From an uncultured candidatus Porisulfidus sp. (GTDB lineage Bacteria; Pseudomonadota; Gammaproteobacteria; Poriferisulfidales; Poriferisulfidaceae), in NCBI GenBank assembly GCA_965204575.1, contig OZ241993.1, positions 704,001 to 768,000 on the forward strand: a DNA stretch of 64,000 nt, read 5' to 3'. The position numbers were made by a program, and so were the translations under genes. The notes under the pieces are model-generated. The model was given only the letters and a program-made list of their open reading frames with translations, was not told where the DNA came from and did no database searches. Shown piece after piece: positions 1,971 to 10,861 of the stretch (within the stretch, counting starts at the first letter, position 1; each line of letters opens with the position of its first letter).

Positions 1971-2326
1971 ACAACGCCCCCCTCCCGATAGGGTTTTCCA
2001 TGCAAGGTTCGTTTGCCTGGTAAATTCCACAGGCTTTTGAAGGGTGGCGGCTAGCAGGCCGACAGGCCGGAATTCCAGCATTATGGCGGCTCAATGGATG
2101 TTTTTAGCGGTAGTGATTTCTGCAGTGCGGTGGATTGCTGCTTTCCGGACAAAGGAGCCAGACAAATTCGTGCGATAATTCTTTGCCCAGAAACAATAAA
2201 ATTGAAATATTGTTAATCAGGTTCCCGGCAATATGAAAATTTATATTATTTATCAATATTTTGCGGAGATCTCGATTTGCATCTAAATCTAAATTCGGGC
2301 TGTGAACAATATTTAGAAATCATGTG

Positions 2327-3451
2327 ATGCGTTCATACCAAAGTTTGATTGACCGGCCTAACTCCGCGCCTCTAGAATGGCAGGAGTCTTGCACACATAG
2401 CGAGTCGACGTTACACCAACTTTCACCATATATTGGGAAATTGAAAAGTTCCATCGCTCGTGACCTAGTTTCAGAGTATTCGAGAAGAGGAGAAATAGTT
2501 GCAGATGTTTTTTGCGGCAGTGGCACAATTCCGCTTGAATGTGTTCAGATGGGACGGCGAATCTTTGCGTCAGATGCTAGCCCTTATGCGATAACTCTTA
2601 CTAGAGGAAAACTGAATGCTCCTTGTGATCTCGAAGAGGCAAATAAAGCGTTGGATAAAGCGCTAAAAGCCGCACAATCATGCCAAATAGATCTTCGCCG
2701 GGTTCCAGGTTGGGTGCGTAGTTTCTATCACCCTAAAACACTCAAAGAGATTTTAGGGTTACTCACAGTACTGCATAAGCGCAAAGATTATTTTCTCCTG
2801 TCTTGTTTGCTGGGCATTTTGCACCATCAACGCCCAGGATTCCTGTCTTTTCCGAGCAGCCACCTTGTTCCCTATCTTCGCTCAAAAAAATTTCCGCAAG
2901 ACGATCATCCTGAGATGTATGAGTATCGAAGTGTCCAACCGCGTATTAAAGCGAAAGTTGCACGAGCTCTTAAACGACGCAAAAAAATAGATACTAGTCT
3001 AGTCGTTGGAATTCGCCGATCGACAATTGAATTTTTGACCTCGCCTCGTACGGTAGATTGCTTTATTACAAGTCCGCCCTACATGAATGCGCTTGATTAT
3101 GGGCGTGACAACCGCCTGCGAAATTGGTTTTTATCGGGAAGCACCCAGGAACACATTGATACGCGATTGGCTAGCGATGCAGATTTTCGTCGCATGATGT
3201 CGTCCTATGCGCGAATACTTACAAAGACCTTAGTTAAAGGTGGACGGTGTGTGTTTGTGGTGGGTGAAAGGGCAAAACGGAATGGGAAACGATCCCCATC
3301 AGAAGCGCTCTCAGAAGTTCTAGAGAAATTTGCACCAAATTTAAGAATTAAGGAAATCATTAATGATCAAATCCCTGATATTCGTCGCTCGCGGCGTAAT
3401 TTTTCTGGCGTGAAAATGGAGCATATCCTCGTTTACGAACGTCATTGCTAG
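2327..3451 (+). CDS. Site-specific DNA amino-methyltransferase (N4-C/N6-A, alpha-type motif order)
   Basis: Motif I DVFCGSGT near the N-terminus and catalytic motif IV TSPPY in the C-terminal half. First gene of an AT-rich islet. Confidence 0.85.
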   Translation: MRSYQSLIDRPNSAPLEWQESCTHSESTLHQLSPYIGKLKSSIARDLVSEYSRRGEIVADVFCGSGTIPLECVQMGRRIFASDASPYAITLTRGKLNAPCDLEEANKALDKALKAAQSCQIDLRRVPGWVRSFYHPKTLKEILGLLTVLHKRKDYFLLSCLLGILHHQRPGFLSFPSSHLVPYLRSKKFPQDDHPEMYEYRSVQPRIKAKVARALKRRKKIDTSLVVGIRRSTIEFLTSPRTVDCFITSPPYMNALDYGRDNRLRNWFLSGSTQEHIDTRLASDADFRRMMSSYARILTKTLVKGGRCVFVVGERAKRNGKRSPSEALSEVLEKFAPNLRIKEIINDQIPDIRRSRRNFSGVKMEHILVYERHC

Positions 3452-3452
3452 C

Positions 3453-5942
3453 ATGCGCAAATACATGCCTGATTCTCAGCACTTTTTAGGCCAAGTTTTG
3501 CCTGAATTCCCAGATCATGAAATTGTCGATCTGATTGGTTCTGGTTTCAATGGGCATGTATATCGAGCACATGCACCAAATATCAAAGGTGATTTAGCTT
3601 TCAAATTCGTGCCAACAGAAAACCTTCCCTCGGATCCCGAACAGCGTAATACTTACTTGACCGAGGCTAGAAAGGCTAATCTATTGGAAAATGAAAATGT
3701 TGTTCGGTGCATAAGTGTGCTTCCGTGGGAGGACAAAGCCTTAAATAGGACTTTTGTTGTGTTTATCCTTCCTTATGTGCCGGGCAAGTCGCTAGCAGAG
3801 TACATAAAGAACAACCGAAAAAACATCAGTATTGCATTTGTTGAAAACTTCCTTCTAACAATGTTCAACTTGCTTCACGAGCTTGGTCTGCGCAACATGG
3901 AACACAATGACCTGCATTCTGGGAATGTGCTTGTTTCTCAATCTCAATATGATCTGAGTGGCAAAACGACATTTCGAATCACGGATTTTGGTGTTGCAGA
4001 GGTGACAGAGACTCACCATCCTAACGACTATTTGTCCGTCGCGAGGATGCTAAAAGACCTACTAGGGAACATTGACTACCAAGAGCAACAATCACGTGAT
4101 CGTTATGTATATGAAATATTGCGAACTGACTTCTTAGGACGACACCTGATTGAAACGGACCCATTGGCTGATTCATTAGCGAGGAATGCGAGGGGACTAG
4201 CTGAAAAGCTAAACTCCATAGATGATGATTTTCGTGAAGCTAATAGAGAGCATACAGTCACTCAAATGGAAACACCATTTGACTATCCGAATTGTGAACA
4301 GATGGGCAATTCTCATCTACTACTAAAAAATTTGTATTCGGACCAATTGCTAGGGCTAGATAAGATTCGCGAGCGATCAAATCTCGTACTTACCGGACCA
4401 CGAGGCTGTGGCAAAACGACGGTTTTTCGAGCGTTGAGTTTAGACTATAAAACCTCTACGGATGAAGACCATCCTTCTGAAATCCAGTTCATAGGTGTTT
4501 ATTATCGTTGTGACGACTTGTATTTTTCATTTCCACGCTACGAATTGCCAGCAAGACAAGAAGCTATTGACATCCCGATGCATTTTGTCGTTGCCACCCT
4601 TATGGCAGAGACTTTACAGCATTTGAGCAGTTGGGGGAGGAAGTTTTTTGCAGAAGAATTTCAACAAAAAGAGCCAATTGCGGCTAAAAAATTGTGGGGA
4701 ATAATTGGACTTAACCAACCCATGGACCCATCCGCCGGACAGTTTGCGTTATTGGTTAATAGCCTTATAAAGCAACGGAAGCGTGCAGCCAACAAACAAC
4801 GTGTTTGTCATGACCCCTCTCATCCAATCAAAAACTACGTGGGGCCAGAGGCGCTATTTAAATTCTGTTCGGCACTCAGATCCACATTTTCCTTTTTAAG
4901 CGATCGTCCTTTTTTCTACTTTATTGACGACTATTCGATGCCGAAGATTACATCAAACTTGCAACAAAATTTAAACAGACTATTTATGCATCGAGATGCT
5001 GACGTGTTTTTCAAACTGTCTACAGAAAGCCCCGTTTCATTCGAACGAGGCGATATAGACGAAAAACAGTATGTAGAAGAGCGTGAATACGATCTGCTGA
5101 ATTTGGGATTGCGCTATCTTGCAAGTGATGGAAAACAAGTACAGACATTTCTTACTGATCTCTTTCAGCGCCGTTTTCACGCTGCTAGAAATTTTCCATG
5201 CGATTCGCTTGCTGAATTGCTTGGGGATAACCCTAGAAATGAAAATGATAATGCAAGAAAAATCAGAGAGAAAAAAAGGCATAACACATACTGGGGAGTT
5301 CAGACAGTCACCGCGATGTGTAGCGGCGACATTCATTACATGATTCGACTTGTCGGAAAGATGGTCGAAGATGCAGGCGATCTTGATTCGCGCAAAGAAA
5401 TCCCTCGTATACTATCGGACCGACAGTCTGAAACAATTCGAAAAGCAGCAGGTGAGTTTATGGAGTCTGTCCGAAACTTGCCGCGTCATGGAGAAAAACT
5501 AGCGCGAATAATTACTGCACTGGGAAAAGTAGCTAGTTCGTATTTACGTTATCGCAATGCACGTAATGTGACAGGGAGCCCGCCGCATCAAGCGTCGAGA
5601 ATTGAACCATATGGCCCTTTAAAGTTATCGGATGATGCCCAAAACCTATTGAACGACTTAATCCGATTTTCTATCCTAATGATGGATCCTCGTGGAAAGA
5701 GTCGCCGTGGAGACGTTGTTCCCCGACTGTATCTCAGACGTTATCTATTGCCACATTTCAATCTCACATTCAGTAAGAGAGATTCCCTTCAACTAGAAAA
5801 TACTGAGATCGAATTGCTCCTAACTGACCCAGATCTTTTTGAAAGACGAAAATGTATTAGAAGTGCTCGTGATTCAAAGGCAAAAGAGCAACAAAGCCGA
5901 AGTCAGGAAAATTTATTTGATGAGAATAGTAATGGAACGTGA
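3453..5942 (+). CDS. Ser/Thr-type protein kinase domain fused to an ORC/CDC6-like (STAND/AAA+) P-loop ATPase with a probable C-terminal winged helix
   Basis: Kinase motifs IGSGFNGHVY, AFKF, helix-C Glu (TEA), HNDLHSGN and DFG. Walker A LTGPRGCGKTT and Walker B FFYFIDDY. Starts 1 nt after the methyltransferase stop. Confidence 0.85.
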   Translation: MRKYMPDSQHFLGQVLPEFPDHEIVDLIGSGFNGHVYRAHAPNIKGDLAFKFVPTENLPSDPEQRNTYLTEARKANLLENENVVRCISVLPWEDKALNRTFVVFILPYVPGKSLAEYIKNNRKNISIAFVENFLLTMFNLLHELGLRNMEHNDLHSGNVLVSQSQYDLSGKTTFRITDFGVAEVTETHHPNDYLSVARMLKDLLGNIDYQEQQSRDRYVYEILRTDFLGRHLIETDPLADSLARNARGLAEKLNSIDDDFREANREHTVTQMETPFDYPNCEQMGNSHLLLKNLYSDQLLGLDKIRERSNLVLTGPRGCGKTTVFRALSLDYKTSTDEDHPSEIQFIGVYYRCDDLYFSFPRYELPARQEAIDIPMHFVVATLMAETLQHLSSWGRKFFAEEFQQKEPIAAKKLWGIIGLNQPMDPSAGQFALLVNSLIKQRKRAANKQRVCHDPSHPIKNYVGPEALFKFCSALRSTFSFLSDRPFFYFIDDYSMPKITSNLQQNLNRLFMHRDADVFFKLSTESPVSFERGDIDEKQYVEEREYDLLNLGLRYLASDGKQVQTFLTDLFQRRFHAARNFPCDSLAELLGDNPRNENDNARKIREKKRHNTYWGVQTVTAMCSGDIHYMIRLVGKMVEDAGDLDSRKEIPRILSDRQSETIRKAAGEFMESVRNLPRHGEKLARIITALGKVASSYLRYRNARNVTGSPPHQASRIEPYGPLKLSDDAQNLLNDLIRFSILMMDPRGKSRRGDVVPRLYLRRYLLPHFNLTFSKRDSLQLENTEIELLLTDPDLFERRKCIRSARDSKAKEQQSRSQENLFDENSNGT

Positions 5943-6996
5943 GGCCATGCTAGAAAAATTGCTCAGACCTGATGAGCAGTTGTCCGCAATTGATTGGCCC
6001 GAACTGATGCCTATCGATAACTTTTCTCTTGGTCCTACAGACTGCCTTGTCGTTGGGATGGGTTTCGAAGAAAGAGCATTGGCTGCACTGAAACAGGCAT
6101 GCCAAACATCAAAAGATTTTCACGTTGTATTAATCCGCTATTTGCCTGAAATCCGGCAAAACAAAGAGGCAGAATGTCTGGATCTTTGTAGAGCTAGTAA
6201 CCTTAATGTCACTCAATTTGAGTATAACCGTGAGCAGCCTTCGGGTATGGGTGTGTCTCTAGCAGATTACGTGTCGAGTTTCGAGCGAATTTTCTTGGAC
6301 ATTTCGGGGATGTCACGCCTGTTGATCGTTCAAGCTATTGTGGCTCTGATTGAGAGTGGTAGAAAATTTCATATCTTGTATACGGAAGCGCAAGTTTATC
6401 CACCGCTCCGAGAAGAGTACGAAAAAGAGCGCGAAAAGGCGAGTGTGGCAGACAACGCGAGCCTTTCATTTATTTCTAGTGGAATTTTTGAGATTGTTTC
6501 AACTCCAGAATTGAGCTCAGCTTTCATGCTAGGAGGGGCTATCCGTCTTATTTCATTTCCATCATTTGATCCTAGCCAATTATCAAATCTTGTCCAAGAG
6601 GTTCAACCCACTCACAACGATGTTGTCCATGGAACGCCTCCGCACGAAGAGATGGTTTGGCGCACAAATGCGATTAGTCAATTGAACGGGTCAACAATGA
6701 AAGCATTGCAACGTGCAGAAAGTCATAAAGCCAGCACTTTAGATTATCGAGAGACGCTCAATCTAATCTTAGACTTGTATCATCGGCACTCGATGTTTGA
6801 TCGTTTCGTGATTGCGCCGACTGGCAGCAAAATGCAGGCTATCGCTATTGGCATTTTACGTGGAGTGCTAGCAGATATCCAGATCGTTTATCCAACACCT
6901 TTACAATTTGTCGAGCCGGATCGCTATACTGAAGGAGTGAAACAGATTTTTCACCTTGCCGTGGATTGTGTGGAAGTTTATCCCGTCCAAGATTAA
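5932..6996 (+). CDS. Hypothetical protein with two repeated alpha/beta units resembling CARF/DUF6293-like Rossmann domains
   Basis: Long ORF overlapping the kinase-ATPase stop (ATG 5932; alternative 5947). Paired motifs GMGFEERA / FPSFDPSQ, LDISGMSR / IAPTGSKM and ILYTEAQVY / IVYPTPLQF. The fold assignment is inference. Confidence 0.7.
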   Translation: MEREAMLEKLLRPDEQLSAIDWPELMPIDNFSLGPTDCLVVGMGFEERALAALKQACQTSKDFHVVLIRYLPEIRQNKEAECLDLCRASNLNVTQFEYNREQPSGMGVSLADYVSSFERIFLDISGMSRLLIVQAIVALIESGRKFHILYTEAQVYPPLREEYEKEREKASVADNASLSFISSGIFEIVSTPELSSAFMLGGAIRLISFPSFDPSQLSNLVQEVQPTHNDVVHGTPPHEEMVWRTNAISQLNGSTMKALQRAESHKASTLDYRETLNLILDLYHRHSMFDRFVIAPTGSKMQAIAIGILRGVLADIQIVYPTPLQFVEPDRYTEGVKQIFHLAVDCVEVYPVQD

Positions 6997-7073
6997 TATT
7001 CATATTGAAATATTTTTTTAGATGCTCTAAATCTGGGGATTACCCTAAATCTCTAGTCTTCTGATTTTGCTTT

Positions 7074-7568
7074 ATGCGCCAACTGATCCTCGTCCGCCAC
7101 GCAAAATCCGATCGCAGCGATTGGAGTGTTCCGGATGTTGAGCGCCCGCTTGCTCCAAGGGGGGAACGGGATGCCCCGGAAATGGGGCGGCGGCTGGCGG
7201 ACCGCCAGAAGGATATCGATGCTTTGTACAGTTCGCCCGCCCGCCGGGCACTCGACACTGCGGAACATTTCGCTTCGGCGCTGGGCATGGACGCGGCGGA
7301 CATCCGCTTGCGGAAAGGCTTCTACACATTTTCGCCCAACGACATGCTTCGGGAGTTGCGCGAACTGGACGATGCTGCTGACCGGGTCGTGGTTTTCAGC
7401 CACAATCCCGCGACCAGCGGAGTTGCCGCTTACTTGGCCAACGAGGTCTTGGGAGACCTTCCGACCTGCGCGGTGGTTCGGCTGGATGTAGATTGCGACT
7501 CTTGGCGGGACCTGGGCCCTGCTGTCTGCACCCTGCGCGAGGTTGACACTCCGAAAAACCCGGCTTGA
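7074..7568 (+). CDS. sixA: SixA-family histidine phosphatase
   Basis: LILVRHAKS, DVERPLAPRG, SSPARRALDT and SHNP motifs. Confidence 0.88.
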   Translation: MRQLILVRHAKSDRSDWSVPDVERPLAPRGERDAPEMGRRLADRQKDIDALYSSPARRALDTAEHFASALGMDAADIRLRKGFYTFSPNDMLRELRELDDAADRVVVFSHNPATSGVAAYLANEVLGDLPTCAVVRLDVDCDSWRDLGPAVCTLREVDTPKNPA

Positions 7569-7585
7569 CGGGTGATCCGATTTGA

Positions 7586-9367
7586 TCAGGGATTGATCCC
7601 GTCCACGTGCTGTTGCAGCCAGCATTCCAACGCTGCTGCATGCCATAGGAGGCTGCCGTCCAGCGCAGTTCGATAGCGCAGGGGATCCCGAAGCAGCCGG
7701 TCCAGATACTCTCCCCTGAACAGCCCACGATTCCGGCATTCGGGCAGATTCAAGGTTTCCCGCGCCCAGTCCAGGAAAGGCCCCTGCACGTACTTGAGGG
7801 CCGGAACCGGGAAATACCCTTTTGGCCGGTCGATCACCTCCGCCGGCAGCCGCGACCGGGCCAAGGCACGCAACGGGTACTTGCCGCCGTCGCGCAGCTT
7901 CAGTTCTGCCGGCATCCCGGCGACGCATTCCACCAATTGATGGTCGAGATACGGCACGCGCGCTTCAAGCCCCCACGCCATGGTCATGTTGTCGACCCGC
8001 TTGACCGGATCATCGGTGATCAGCATGGTCGCGTCCATGCGCAGCACGGCATTCAGGAATTCGACGTCCTCGCTGCATTCCAGCCGTTCGGCGAGCAATG
8101 CCCGGGTATGATCCTCGCCGACCCATTCCGGCACCAGCGCCTCACCGAACTCATCGTGGGTACGGTCAAGGTAATGGCGGCAGAAAGCATCCAGTCCGTC
8201 CGCCTGTTCCTCGTGCATTTTCGGGTACCAGGAATAGCCTGCGAACACTTCATCTGCGCCTTGCCCGCTCTGCACGACCGAGATGTCTGGCTTGACCTGT
8301 TCGGCCAGCAGGAAGAACGCCGCCGCGTCCTGCGCCACCATGGGTTCGCTCATGCAGCCGATGGCCTCGTCCAAGCGGCCCAGCAGTTGATCGTTGCGGA
8401 TGAAGTAACGGTGATGTTCGGTGGCATAGTGCCGGGCAACCGCATCCGAGTAGTCGAATTCATGCCCGGCTTCTCCGCCTGCGTCCTCGAAGCCGATGCT
8501 GTAAGTGCGGATGGGTGAGGAGCCATGCTCGGCCAGCAGGGCCACCAGCAGGCTGGAGTCCAGGCCGCCGGACAGAAGCACGCCGACCGGGATGTCGGAG
8601 ATCTCCACCCGCTTGCGCACGGCCTCCCGAAGTTCGACATGCACCTGCTCCACCCATTCCTCCGTGCTGCGAGCGGGATCCGGGTTGCGTGCATCCAGTT
8701 GCCAGTAACCCCTCTCTTTCATCGTGCCGTCCGCATCGACCATCAGGCAGTGGCCCGGCGCGAGCTTGCGGATGGAGCGCAGCAGGGTACGGGGTGCCGG
8801 GACGACCGCGTGCAGGCTCAGGTGATGGTGCAGGGCGACCTCGTCGAGCGCAAGATCGACGTCCCCGGTGGCAAGCAACGCCTGTACATTGGAGGCGAAG
8901 CGGAACACATCGGGGCTCTGGTGGTAATAAAGCGGCTTGATGCCCAGCCGGTCCCGGGCCAGGAACAGTTGCTCTGCATCCGGATCCCATAGGGCGAAGG
9001 CGAACATGCCGTGCAAGCGCCCGACGCAGTCTTCGCCCCACTCGGCGTAGGCTTTCAGAATGACCTCGCTGTCCCCCGTCGTCTGGAAACGGTGGCCGCG
9101 CTCTTTGAGCAGCGTTCGCAGTTGCGGGTAGTTGTAGATGCACCCGTTGAACACCAGGATTCGCCCGGAATCGGGATCCAGAAGCGGTTGATGCGCGCGG
9201 GGATTCAGGTCGATGACCGACAGGCGTCGGTGTCCCAGGGCGATCGGGCCCTGATGCCACTGGCCTTCGTGATCGGGTCCACGCCGGGCCAGGGGCCCAA
9301 GCATGCGGGTGATTCGGGCGGGGTCGGCCGGCCCTCTAAAATGCCTTTCTCCCGCAATTCCACACAC
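7586..9367 (-). CDS. AsnB-family glutamine amidotransferase, N-acetylglutaminylglutamine amidotransferase-like
   Basis: N-terminal (M)CGIAG Ntn nucleophile from GTG at 9367. Also RRGPD, GHRRLSVIDL, LLSGGLDSS, SGQGADEVFAGY and DDPVKRVDNMTMAWGLEARVP. Confidence 0.88.
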   Translation of the reverse strand: MCGIAGERHFRGPADPARITRMLGPLARRGPDHEGQWHQGPIALGHRRLSVIDLNPRAHQPLLDPDSGRILVFNGCIYNYPQLRTLLKERGHRFQTTGDSEVILKAYAEWGEDCVGRLHGMFAFALWDPDAEQLFLARDRLGIKPLYYHQSPDVFRFASNVQALLATGDVDLALDEVALHHHLSLHAVVPAPRTLLRSIRKLAPGHCLMVDADGTMKERGYWQLDARNPDPARSTEEWVEQVHVELREAVRKRVEISDIPVGVLLSGGLDSSLLVALLAEHGSSPIRTYSIGFEDAGGEAGHEFDYSDAVARHYATEHHRYFIRNDQLLGRLDEAIGCMSEPMVAQDAAAFFLLAEQVKPDISVVQSGQGADEVFAGYSWYPKMHEEQADGLDAFCRHYLDRTHDEFGEALVPEWVGEDHTRALLAERLECSEDVEFLNAVLRMDATMLITDDPVKRVDNMTMAWGLEARVPYLDHQLVECVAGMPAELKLRDGGKYPLRALARSRLPAEVIDRPKGYFPVPALKYVQGPFLDWARETLNLPECRNRGLFRGEYLDRLLRDPLRYRTALDGSLLWHAAALECWLQQHVDGINP

Positions 9368-9690: not shown

Positions 9691-10719
9691 TCAGCCGCGC
9701 GGCGGACAGACGTAATCTTTCTGGTACTTGCGGCCATGGGCCAGCAAGGCCCAGGCGATTCTCGCCTGCCGGTTGGCGACTGCCACCGCGGCGACGTTGA
9801 ACGGCTTGTTCCGCTTGATCTTCTCGACCCACTCGGGCAGCTCCCGGCCGTTGGCCAGCAGTGACCGGGCGCCATGGATCAGCAGCGTGCGCAGGTAGCG
9901 GTCGCCCCGCTTGCTGATGCCGAGAATGCGGGTCTTCCCGCCAGTGCCGCTGTGGCGCGGCACCAGCCCCAGCCAGGCCGCGAACTCCCGAGCGTTGCGG
10001 AACGCCCGCGCGTCTCCCGCGGCGGCGACCAGGGCGGTCGCGGTCAGCAGGCCGATGCCCGGCACCTCCCGCAGTCGCCGGCAAGCCTCATGGCTTGTGC
10101 ACCATGCCTCCAGCTTCCGCTCGACCCGCGCAATCGCCTCGTCGTGCTCGTGGACGCGACGCCACTGCGCGGATAACTCTTCCCGACCCATCTCCGGGAC
10201 TCGCCCAGCCAGCCGGTCCAGCACGCCTTCGATCTCCCGGCTCAGCCCGGCCCGTCCTTGCGGCATCACCTCCCCGTATTCGCCCAGCAGGCCGCGCAGG
10301 CTATTGATCGTCGCCGTGCGGAACTTCACCTGCTGCTGCCGCAGGCGGTGCAGCCCCAGAATCATCTGCTGCTCCTCGTCCTTGATCGCCACCGACTTCG
10401 ACCGCGGATGCTGCACCGCCGTCCAGATCGCCCGCGCATCCTGCACGTCGCTCTTGTTGCCGGTGACGAACGCCCGCACCGACTGCGCCGGCAACACGGT
10501 CACCTCGTGTCCCATCTGCCGGAACCGGCGCGCCCACTCCTGCGAACCGCCGCAGGCTTCCAACCCGATCCGGCAGGGCGCCCGGTTGGCAAAGTGCTCG
10601 ACGAACTTCTGCCGCGACAGCTTCAGATCGACCAGTTCGCCGCCGGCCTCCACCCAGTGCAGTTGGAACACGTGCTTCGCGGTATCCACGCCGACCACCG
10701 GTTTATTGCTATACTCCAT
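9691..10719 (-). CDS. IS110-family transposase/recombinase
   Basis: VGVDTAK (D), GLEACG (E), KSDVQDA (DD), VPGIGLLTA and GLVPRHSGTGGK with the conserved Ser. GGAGGA ribosome-binding site upstream. Confidence 0.96.
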   Translation of the reverse strand: MEYSNKPVVGVDTAKHVFQLHWVEAGGELVDLKLSRQKFVEHFANRAPCRIGLEACGGSQEWARRFRQMGHEVTVLPAQSVRAFVTGNKSDVQDARAIWTAVQHPRSKSVAIKDEEQQMILGLHRLRQQQVKFRTATINSLRGLLGEYGEVMPQGRAGLSREIEGVLDRLAGRVPEMGREELSAQWRRVHEHDEAIARVERKLEAWCTSHEACRRLREVPGIGLLTATALVAAAGDARAFRNAREFAAWLGLVPRHSGTGGKTRILGISKRGDRYLRTLLIHGARSLLANGRELPEWVEKIKRNKPFNVAAVAVANRQARIAWALLAHGRKYQKDYVCPPRG

Positions 10720-10722
10720 CTC

Positions 10723-10804
10723 GAATCCTCCAGTCTGGCTCGTTGAAGTCGCCTATTGTCCACCTTTGGTACCCTAGATGCCGTCCGGACTCACTGGAGG
10801 ATTC
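10723..10804 (-). promoter_or_regulatory. 12-bp inverted repeat able to sequester the transposase Shine-Dalgarno sequence
   Basis: GAATCCTCCAGT (10723-10734) and ACTGGAGGATTC (10793-10804) are exact reverse complements; one arm contains the RBS. Confidence 0.65.
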
Positions 10805-10861
10805 ACCCTCTCCCAGTAATCCGGTCGCCAAGGCCAGGCGGCTTTCATACCATTTCCAATC

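Follow-up and report, generated by a model that had tools for sequence, protein, structure and literature searches.

Proteins in which a Zn ribbon, a Ser/Thr/Tyr kinase, an AAA+ ATPase with an arginine in its P-loop, a CARF domain and a winged helix-turn-helix (wHTH) are joined were described as 'a small family' of large proteins in Makarova 2014; in the part of that paper available to us, the CARF domain was suggested to act in a kinase-mediated signalling pathway, and CARF domains are said classically to bind cyclic oligoadenylates (PMC4012209). In PADLOC, this architecture corresponds to the profile PDLC01925 ('CARF6--CARF_STK_AAA', 1187 positions), in which the kinase (ca. 116-190) is followed by the ATPase (319-685) and the CARF domain (861-1187). 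According to the accessible part of a further source, Pgl/BREX type 2 comprises the PglX methyltransferase, the PglW kinase, the ORC-Cdc6-like ATPase PglY/BrxC and PglZ (PMC12839542). The PUA-Cal-HAD system is triggered, as far as the accessible text of its preprint goes, by Dam-derived m6-dAMP that is freed through phage-induced chromosome degradation (bioRxiv 10.64898/2026.01.15.699771). Here, we describe a cassette of three genes in a 64,000-nucleotide (nt) stretch of an uncultured candidatus Porisulfidus sp. (contig OZ241993.1, GCA_965204575.1, positions 704,001 to 768,000 of the forward strand; hereafter, the window), which consists of a putative DNA methyltransferase gene (gene 1), a kinase-ATPase gene (gene 2) and a gene for a CARF-like protein (gene 3). 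We regard the trio as a self-contained, mobile conflict cassette, most likely a methylation-associated anti-phage or anti-plasmid system, the role in defence having in our judgement a little better than an even chance.

Domains and conserved residues of the three genes

The products of genes 2 and 3 align with consecutive segments of PDLC01925 (1.6e-27 and 1.9e-17, respectively) and, judged by these matches, are a split form of the catalogued kinase-AAA+-CARF architecture. Gene 2 (3453..5942, + strand) encodes a fusion of a Hanks-type Ser/Thr kinase domain (Pkinase, 5.7e-16; amino acids (aa) 24-190, nt 3522-4022) and an ORC/Cdc6-like AAA+ ATPase (PF24389 ORC-CDC6-like, 3.1e-45, 155.4 bits against a threshold of 27; aa 294-601, nt 4332-5255). 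The Walker A motif GPRGCGKTT, which has an arginine inside the P-loop, occupies residues 315-323 (nt 4395-4421), and a conserved basic C-terminal region extends over aa 742-778 (nt 5676-5786). Conservation was evaluated using alignments of 73 family members for gene 2 and 39 homologues for gene 1. In gene 2, Lys51, Asp153, Asn158 and Asp178 were invariant, as were the Walker A motif (315-323), Asp492/493 of Walker B, the HxD...N catalytic loop, DFG, sensor 1, the SGD lid motif and the basic C-terminal block; these were retained in a clade with 23-28% identity. These observations support the description, given in an earlier note on this DNA, of a protein kinase joined to a P-loop ATPase with intact Walker A and B motifs. 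The label STAND, which the same note had attached to the ATPase, did not hold beyond the P-loop, since nSTAND3 scored 17.4 bits against 27.2 and nSTAND_NTPase5 scored 11.7 against 34 with the P-loop only, and ORC/Cdc6-like AAA+ is the supported label. Sequence searches of solved structures with gene 2 returned generic kinases and P-loop matches only.

In gene 2 of Candidatus Thiosymbion oneisti (L006, 7001-9511), an arginine stands at the Lys51 position, which is otherwise invariant; the residue may mark a variant with impaired kinase activity or may stem from the alignment. An antisense open reading frame (ORF) of 99 aa that lies inside gene 2 (5037-5336, - strand) recurs at four other loci; rather than being a gene of its own, it most likely reflects the conservation of the gene 2 coding sequence.

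Gene 3 (5920..6996, + strand, within an ORF of 5839-6996) encodes a CARF6-type protein, probably a tandem Rossmann-like sensor. It matched the PADLOC profile CARF6 (PDLC01917) at 3.3e-12 over positions 16-303 of 308, and its Pfam hits, all sub-threshold, were almost all to CARF families (Csa3_N, 1.3e-3). Among 107 homologues, matches to Csa3_N (10), HFX_2341_N (10) and CARF_Card1 (4) were likewise below threshold. Residues G48, E50, D127, W247 and K304 were invariant, and the motifs GFE(D/E)R, DIS(G/T)MS(R/K)L, Y.EA..Y.P, WR, APTGSKMQ and YPTP were conserved. The duplicated Rossmann-like or CARF-like protein proposed in the earlier note was thus recovered as regards the CARF6 profile matches; the duplication found weak support, as the N and C halves aligned in hhalign with an E-value of 0.0036 and a probability of 9% (118 columns in register). 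The Pfam search gave no helix-turn-helix hit, and a wHTH at the level of the fold may still be present. One gene 3 relative carries a C-terminal calcineurin-like phosphoesterase (Metallophos), which matches a PADLOC 'Effector' profile at 6.5e-17, and another is fused to HisKA+HATPase_c. Such fusions of the CARF-like module to a phosphoesterase or a histidine kinase are the architecture that would be expected of an input domain.

Gene 1 (2327..3451, + strand; an alternative GTG start lies at 2324) matched the Pfam N6_N4_Mtase model with 40.8 bits (cut-off 26.7; E-value 3.1e-10) and the PADLOC MTase_II profile at 6.2e-23, and it carries motif I FCGSGT at residues 63-68 (nt 2510-2527) and motif IV SPPY at residues 250-253 (nt 3071-3082). 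Its earlier description as an SPPY-type amino-methyltransferase is upheld by the above-cut-off match and these two motifs. F63, G65, T68, S250, P251 and Y253 were invariant and P252 was near-invariant among the homologues, which aligned over the full length, and 74 columns were invariant, including a middle block at residues 163-186. When a profile built from the homologues was compared with solved proteins, the nearest were beta-class N4-cytosine / N6-adenine DNA methyltransferases, namely 2zie (1e-7) and the N4-cytosine methyltransferase 8s9n (5e-7), followed by MboIIA, RsrI, DpnA and PvuII. The S-adenosylmethionine (SAM)-binding block of gene 1 precedes the SPPY block, an order that is swapped with respect to the best-matching beta-class solved structures, and gene 1 therefore appears to be a permuted relative of the beta-class methyltransferases. 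The middle region, where the target-recognition domain is expected, is among the best conserved parts, residues 163-186 being mostly invariant. Restriction-type methyltransferases usually vary in the target-recognition region. We take gene 1 to be a dedicated amino-methyltransferase whose putative product is N4-methylcytosine or N6-methyladenine, with DNA as the presumed substrate.

A cognate endonuclease gene, as in a type II restriction-modification system, was absent from the cassette in every locus, as was any other nuclease gene, in line with the earlier statement that the operon has no PD-(D/E)xK restriction partner. A 1366-aa ORF in another locus (L004) was considered as a fused methyltransferase and rejected; its domains lie in the C-terminal part only, and the frame probably stays open because the DNA is GC-rich.

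The three genes are co-oriented and tightly packed in an AT-rich islet, as had been noted before: the G+C (GC) content was 0.41-0.46 across 2000-7000 and 0.57-0.71 in the flanks, and overall 0.435 in the cassette against 0.615 in the remaining window. The stop of gene 1 (3451) and the start of gene 2 (3453) are separated by 1 nt, and this gap is real, Met1-Arg2 of gene 2 being near-invariant across the family. Gene 3 could start at an ATG at 5920 or 5932, giving an overlap with gene 2 of 23 or 11 nt, or at an ATG at 5947, 4 nt past the gene 2 stop. Since the N termini of gene 3 homologues map onto residues 1-16 (numbering from the ATG at 5920), an overlap of genes 2 and 3 is likely but not certain. 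The tight coupling claimed earlier is therefore confirmed for the 1-nt gap and likely for the overlap, for which the start is ambiguous.

Linkage, reuse and mobility of the cassette

One genome per species was scanned for the cassette, which gave ten loci from Gamma- and Alphaproteobacteria, Acidobacteriota, Spirochaetia, Nitrospinota, Gemmatimonadota and others (at least seven phyla or classes). Gene 1 lay directly upstream and gene 3 directly downstream of gene 2 in nine of them, and the tenth held a gene 2 fragment only. When metagenomes were scanned using the gene 3 alignment, 413 relatives were obtained, of which the best 80 were kept; 73 of these loci, with at least 284 bp upstream, were informative on gene order, and the other seven were too short. 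Gene 2 was upstream of gene 3 in 73/73 informative loci, and of the 39 loci extending far enough, 38 had gene 1 ahead of gene 2; in the remaining one (L079), a repeat-rich stretch lay upstream of gene 2 instead. The conserved three-gene synteny named in the earlier note as a check was thus found in both scans. The order was also retained in two IMG/VR contigs of a distant clade (L105 and L106), with identities of 53% and 41% for gene 1, 26% and 25% for gene 2, and 31% and 30% for gene 3. On a Bradyrhizobium plasmid (L011), the kinase and the ATPase are encoded separately, in the same order; this locus has a methyltransferase 44% identical to gene 1, a 246-aa kinase, an ATPase of 28% identity and a CARF-like protein of 30% identity. 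The split form on this plasmid, the kinase-ATPase-fused form and the fully fused form make up a fusion-and-fission series, which argues that the kinase, the ATPase and the CARF-like protein may work as one machine. Clustering of the flanking ORFs of cassette loci revealed no conserved fourth gene.

Directly downstream of the Bradyrhizobium plasmid cassette lies thyX (FAD-dependent thymidylate synthase, 9905-10828), and elsewhere two out of 123 flanking ORFs matched Pfam Thy1. This adjacency could be chance or a link to nucleotide metabolism.

Gene 2 had 667 matches in environmental metagenomes, its relatives carrying the database name 'protein kinase' only, and no match in the phage collection that was searched. 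Gene 3 had 561 relatives among 1.84 billion cluster representatives, which are mostly stand-alone proteins of ca. 350 aa; a separate search for longer proteins containing a fused gene 3 relative gave none, a weak indication given that it was limited by its word index. The cassette family is abundant in environmental metagenomes and rare in sampled reference genomes, being present in 3 of 400 genomes of an even sample across the class (own genome included; one is a weak partial match). Within the genus, 2 of 16 genomes carried it, again including the own one.

The gene 1 family (METHYLTRANSFERASE family) heads at least three kinds of cassettes in which a nucleoside triphosphatase (NTPase) is combined with an effector. 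In Salmonella enterica records (H5-H7; L103, 7965-10979), a tight operon encodes a methyltransferase, a ParA-family ATPase and a ThsA-like SIR2 protein (1.2e-21), with neither gene 2 nor gene 3. The Salmonella methyltransferase is a full-length member of the gene 1 family, the hhalign alignment (41% identity, probability 100) taking in the conserved middle block, and the ParA protein had no significant PADLOC match. This operon resembles a sister system whose effector is an NADase. A scan of viral contigs with the gene 1 alignment gave seven loci, of which two had the kinase-ATPase and CARF-like genes, three had ParA and SIR2 (L114-L116), and two were of a third type. In the latter, on IMG/VR contigs (L112, 4986-7879; L117, 4935-7827), the methyltransferase is followed by a 360-aa and a 213-aa protein, in which a DGQQR motif and an R-x4-H motif, respectively, were seen by eye; these are candidate DUF262/GmrSD-type and HEPN-type signatures, which PDB searches did not confirm. 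Versions with another effector, a further check proposed in the earlier note, thus occur at the level of the methyltransferase family, where ParA and SIR2 replace the kinase-ATPase and the CARF-like protein.

At the site that is empty in a congener (G009), the two flanking host genes are ca. 38 bp apart, which defines an insert of ca. 5.1 kb (1971..7075) in the window, extending from the stop of a host methyltransferase-HNH gene to the 3' end of the host gene 7053-7565 (- strand). No convincing target-site duplication was found at the insert. A flanking 23-nt direct repeat (D4) and an inverted repeat (I3) were considered as attachment (att) sites or target duplication and rejected, D4 not being kept in a syntenic congener (L001). 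When the window was compared with this congener, protein identity was 84-91% in the housekeeping flanks, 86% for gene 1 and 73-74% for genes 2 and 3. The GC content of the cassette was at least 3 points under that of the flanks in 29 of 32 loci (mean difference -8.1) and in none higher by 3. These observations support the view that the cassette behaves like mobile accessory DNA that has been horizontally acquired.

Gene 2 was knocked out in three of the nine genome cassettes, through an in-frame TAA at codon 579 (L002, 7001-9499), a 1.26-kb insertion with an IS3-like transposase, read by eye (L008, 8251-9511), and several frameshifts (L010, 7001-9530), and gene 1 was intact in all nine. Inactivation of gene 2 with gene 1 retained is consistent with gene 2 being a costly effector.

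A census of the flanks covered 123 ORFs within 2.2 kb of the cassette at 40 loci, with families tallied per ORF and not per locus. PADLOC matches included mad2 (4), type I restriction enzyme, type I methyltransferase, mad3 and PbeA (3 each) and HmaA, DrmA and DrmD of DISARM, and BrxH (2 each), and Pfam ResIII occurred six times. The tally, which stands without a background rate, shows some defence-island company around the cassette.

The leader of the insert (1971..2323, + strand) is non-coding, AT-rich near gene 1, absent from the empty site and presumably the promoter region. It was conserved only in two loci (L001 and L093; 85% identical over 345 nt). No promoter site was predicted ahead of gene 1 in a scan that gave 10 sites against 9.5 expected from shuffles, and the leader had no Rfam match. 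In the window as a whole, neither a tRNA gene nor an Rfam match was found.

The upstream neighbour (234-1970, + strand) encodes a 578-aa protein in which a class I SAM methyltransferase (Methyltransf_25, 1.4e-16) is joined to a C-terminal HNH_4 nuclease domain (4.1e-5), and it matched PADLOC mad2 at 4.9e-22. It belongs to the host backbone, being of host-like GC content and present at the empty site of the congener without the cassette. It evolves fast, with 72% identity to the syntenic congener against 84-91% for the housekeeping flanks, and one copy (G006) has an in-frame TAG; this gene may be a separate defence or conflict gene. The host gene directly 3' of the insert (7053-7565) encodes ca. 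170 aa, had no Pfam or PADLOC match and is 62-67% identical in congeners; a longer ORF at this place (7053-7928), which runs into the AsnB gene, is probably extended too far. An IS110-family transposase gene (9691-10719, - strand; DEDD_Tnp_IS110 and Transposase_20) lies between AsnB and QueG and has no counterpart in the syntenic regions of the two congeners (L001 and G009), and it is therefore a separate recent insertion.

Possible functions of the cassette

The linkage of the three genes, the fusion and fission of their parts, their intact active sites, the sensor-like fusions of the CARF-like module, the mobility of the cassette, its defence-like neighbours, the modularity of the methyltransferase and the lesions in gene 2 count for methylation-associated defence. 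For this reading, a role in defence, methylation of DNA, the nature of the ligand, the targets of the kinase and the following order of events are inferred. The proposals of the earlier note, in which methylation would mark self or be guarded and oligomerisation of the ATPase would activate the kinase, are likewise hypothetical. Gene 1 would mark the host's own DNA and thereby keep the system from firing on self, and the ORC/Cdc6-like ATPase, with its basic C-terminal region, would be a nucleic-acid-facing switch. The CARF6-type subunit would supply a small-molecule (nucleotide) input. The kinase would be the output, phosphorylating host or phage proteins so that the infection or the cell is stopped; this assignment is made by analogy with kinase abortive-infection systems and with Pgl, the latter as presented in the accessible part of the source (PMC12839542).

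Several points weigh against this reading. The cassette has neither a nuclease nor another classical killing effector, and the conserved middle block of gene 1 may point to a fixed or non-DNA substrate. The CARF assignment of gene 3 comes from profile matches, those to Pfam all below threshold, and sequence searches of solved structures with gene 3 found no relative. The own genome, one contig of 1.82 Mb with a completeness of 98.75%, gave no match to Cas10 palm2 (PF22335) or SMODS (PF18144), the only two models tried, and a source of the classical CARF ligand was therefore not found. The cassettes with gene 2 lesions are metagenome-assembled genome assemblies, in which some pseudogenes could be assembly errors, and defence genes are a minority of the neighbours, many flanking genes being ordinary. 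The literature search, which took in the accessible text of PMC12839542, PMC7159879, PMC13069673 and 10.1101/2025.01.08.631966, found no description of the three-gene cassette, no named system and no experimental work, and a 2020 CARF census, evidently the origin of the PADLOC name CARF6, may record the methyltransferase link; no RNA data for the cassette were found among sequencing runs.

Some of the same observations would suit a non-immune role, in which a toxic or regulatory kinase-ATPase-CARF unit, with the methyltransferase as antidote or regulator, forms a selfish addiction or epigenetic signalling module that stabilises its carrier element. The cassette is compact, mobile and low in GC in nearly every host, gene 2 is often inactivated with gene 1 retained, and many neighbouring genes are ordinary. 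However, such a role is not exclusive of defence, as restriction-modification systems do both, defence genes recur beside the cassette, and the partners of the same methyltransferase family (the ThsA-like SIR2 protein and, by eye, the HEPN-like one) are typical abortive-infection effectors; we therefore consider this role unlikely, if still worth serious attention. A slightly smaller weight is given to the idea that methylated (deoxy)nucleotides from phage-degraded host DNA bind the tandem CARF-like protein and thereby switch on the ATPase-kinase, the methyltransferase making the precursor of the signal and not a self label. This would fit the strict pairing of a nucleotide-sensor-type domain with a nuclease-less methyltransferase, the lack of a cyclic-oligonucleotide synthase match in the own genome (for the two models above), the invariance of the presumed recognition block 163-186 and the higher conservation of gene 1 (41-53% identity where genes 2 and 3 show 25-31%), which would be expected if it matters what the product is chemically. 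PUA-Cal-HAD, with its m6-dAMP trigger, offers a precedent, as far as the accessible text goes (bioRxiv 10.64898/2026.01.15.699771). On the other side, the argument is wholly indirect, and conservation of the block would follow equally well from co-evolution of a writer and a reader of a single DNA motif. Moreover, the same methyltransferase family precedes ParA and SIR2 and another pair without a CARF-like protein, and the role of the methyltransferase would therefore be independent of the CARF sensor. The broader proposal of a family of 'methyltransferase-led' immune modules, of which the cassette would be the founding example and in which a target-invariant methyltransferase is combined with interchangeable NTPase and effector pairs (ORC/Cdc6 ATPase-kinase with the CARF-like protein, ParA with SIR2, or the DGQQR-motif protein with the HEPN-like one), and in whose CARF version the methyl mark would be the precursor of a soluble alarm, is a doubtful one to which we assign a lower probability again.

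Activation by a cyclic oligoadenylate made elsewhere, with the cassette as an ancillary effector of type III CRISPR-Cas or CBASS whose CARF-like protein senses the ligand and turns the kinase on, would agree with the CARF profile matches and with the classical ligand of CARF domains, as given in the available part of Makarova 2014 (PMC4012209). It appears highly improbable, because the own genome matched neither PF22335 nor PF18144 (the only two models tried), the 25 most frequent families of the 123 flanking ORFs included no cas or cyclase family, and the three genes move together through unrelated hosts. Finally, gene 1 might be the methyltransferase of a restriction pair with the upstream HNH neighbour, which lies ca. 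350 bp upstream on the same strand and has the HNH_4 domain. This pairing has next to no credibility: the neighbour carries its own SAM methyltransferase domain, has host-like GC content and adjoins the cassette only in the window and in one congener (L001), and it was ruled out as a restriction partner by the empty site, where it is present without the cassette.

Should it give protection against phages, the cassette would be among the smallest methylation-associated systems, with a kinase output and a CARF-type domain outside CRISPR/CBASS signalling. Methylation-associated defence of this kind, if true, would bear on CARF-like sensing without a cyclase, on how an ORC/Cdc6-like ATPase couples the state of DNA to an effector, as in BREX, and on why nuclease-less systems need a methyltransferase. 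The occurrence of one methyltransferase family with a kinase, SIR2 and a third partner provides natural effector-swap controls.

Comparison with known systems

In PADLOC, none of the cassette proteins could be assigned to a named multi-gene system: mad6, PD-T4-6 and MkoA were matched by the kinase domain only, and no Avs profile was among the PADLOC matches of the three proteins. Like PD-T4-6, the cassette has a Hanks-type kinase as the likely effector, and PD-T4-6 profiles matched the gene 2 kinase at up to 2.2e-14. Kinases of the PD-T4-6 type are single-gene systems, whereas the cassette kinase shares its polypeptide with an AAA+ ATPase and is linked to genes for a methyltransferase and a CARF-like protein. 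Stk2 is a kinase-based abortive-infection system that likewise consists of a single-gene kinase. MADS (mad1-mad8) is also methylation-linked and combines a kinase with ATPases, according to the part of the source available (PMC13662399), and the gene 2 kinase matched mad6 at 5e-17. However, MADS is an eight-gene operon with nuclease modules, as against three genes here, the matches to mad2 and mad8 are at the domain level only, and gene 2 scored 19 bits with the NCBIfam model MAD6, for which the cut-off is 460, and is thus not a MADS member by this model.

Pgl/BREX type 2 resembles the cassette in having a DNA methyltransferase, a protein kinase and an ORC/Cdc6-clade ATPase and no obvious restriction nuclease, as far as the accessible part of the source tells (PMC12839542). 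The cassette differs in that it lacks PglZ, BrxA, BrxB, BrxD and BrxH and has no BREX profile match in PADLOC. The Pgl/BREX kinase is joined to NERD/pseudokinase/inactive STAND parts, whereas the cassette kinase is fused to an ATPase with intact motifs; the methyltransferase is small, permuted and beta-like, unlike PglX, and a CARF-like subunit is added. The likeness to PUA-Cal-HAD is hypothetical and lies in host methylation supplying a nucleotide danger signal, m6-dAMP being sensed there by a filament. The two share no homology, and PUA-Cal-HAD uses the host Dam and has other sensor and effector domains, whereas the cassette has its own methyltransferase; this comparison too is drawn from the accessible text of the preprint.

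The kinase-AAA+-CARF family shares with the cassette the order of kinase, ATPase and CARF domain and the arginine in Walker A (GPRGCGKT). The family members are single polypeptides, whereas the cassette has two genes (three on the Bradyrhizobium plasmid), and they have a Zn ribbon and a wHTH, neither of which was detected here, where the kinase starts at about residue 20. The methyltransferase is nearly always linked here, whereas the available part of Makarova 2014 mentions none (PMC4012209). The absence of a match to BREX/Pgl or Avs, as claimed in the earlier note, therefore stands in PADLOC, and its designation of the whole as new does not extend to genes 2 and 3, which are covered by PDLC01925 and, in the part available, by PMC4012209. 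The kinase-AAA+-CARF core has been known since 2014, and its near-obligate and modular partnership with a methyltransferase appears, against the accessible portions of these sources, to be new.

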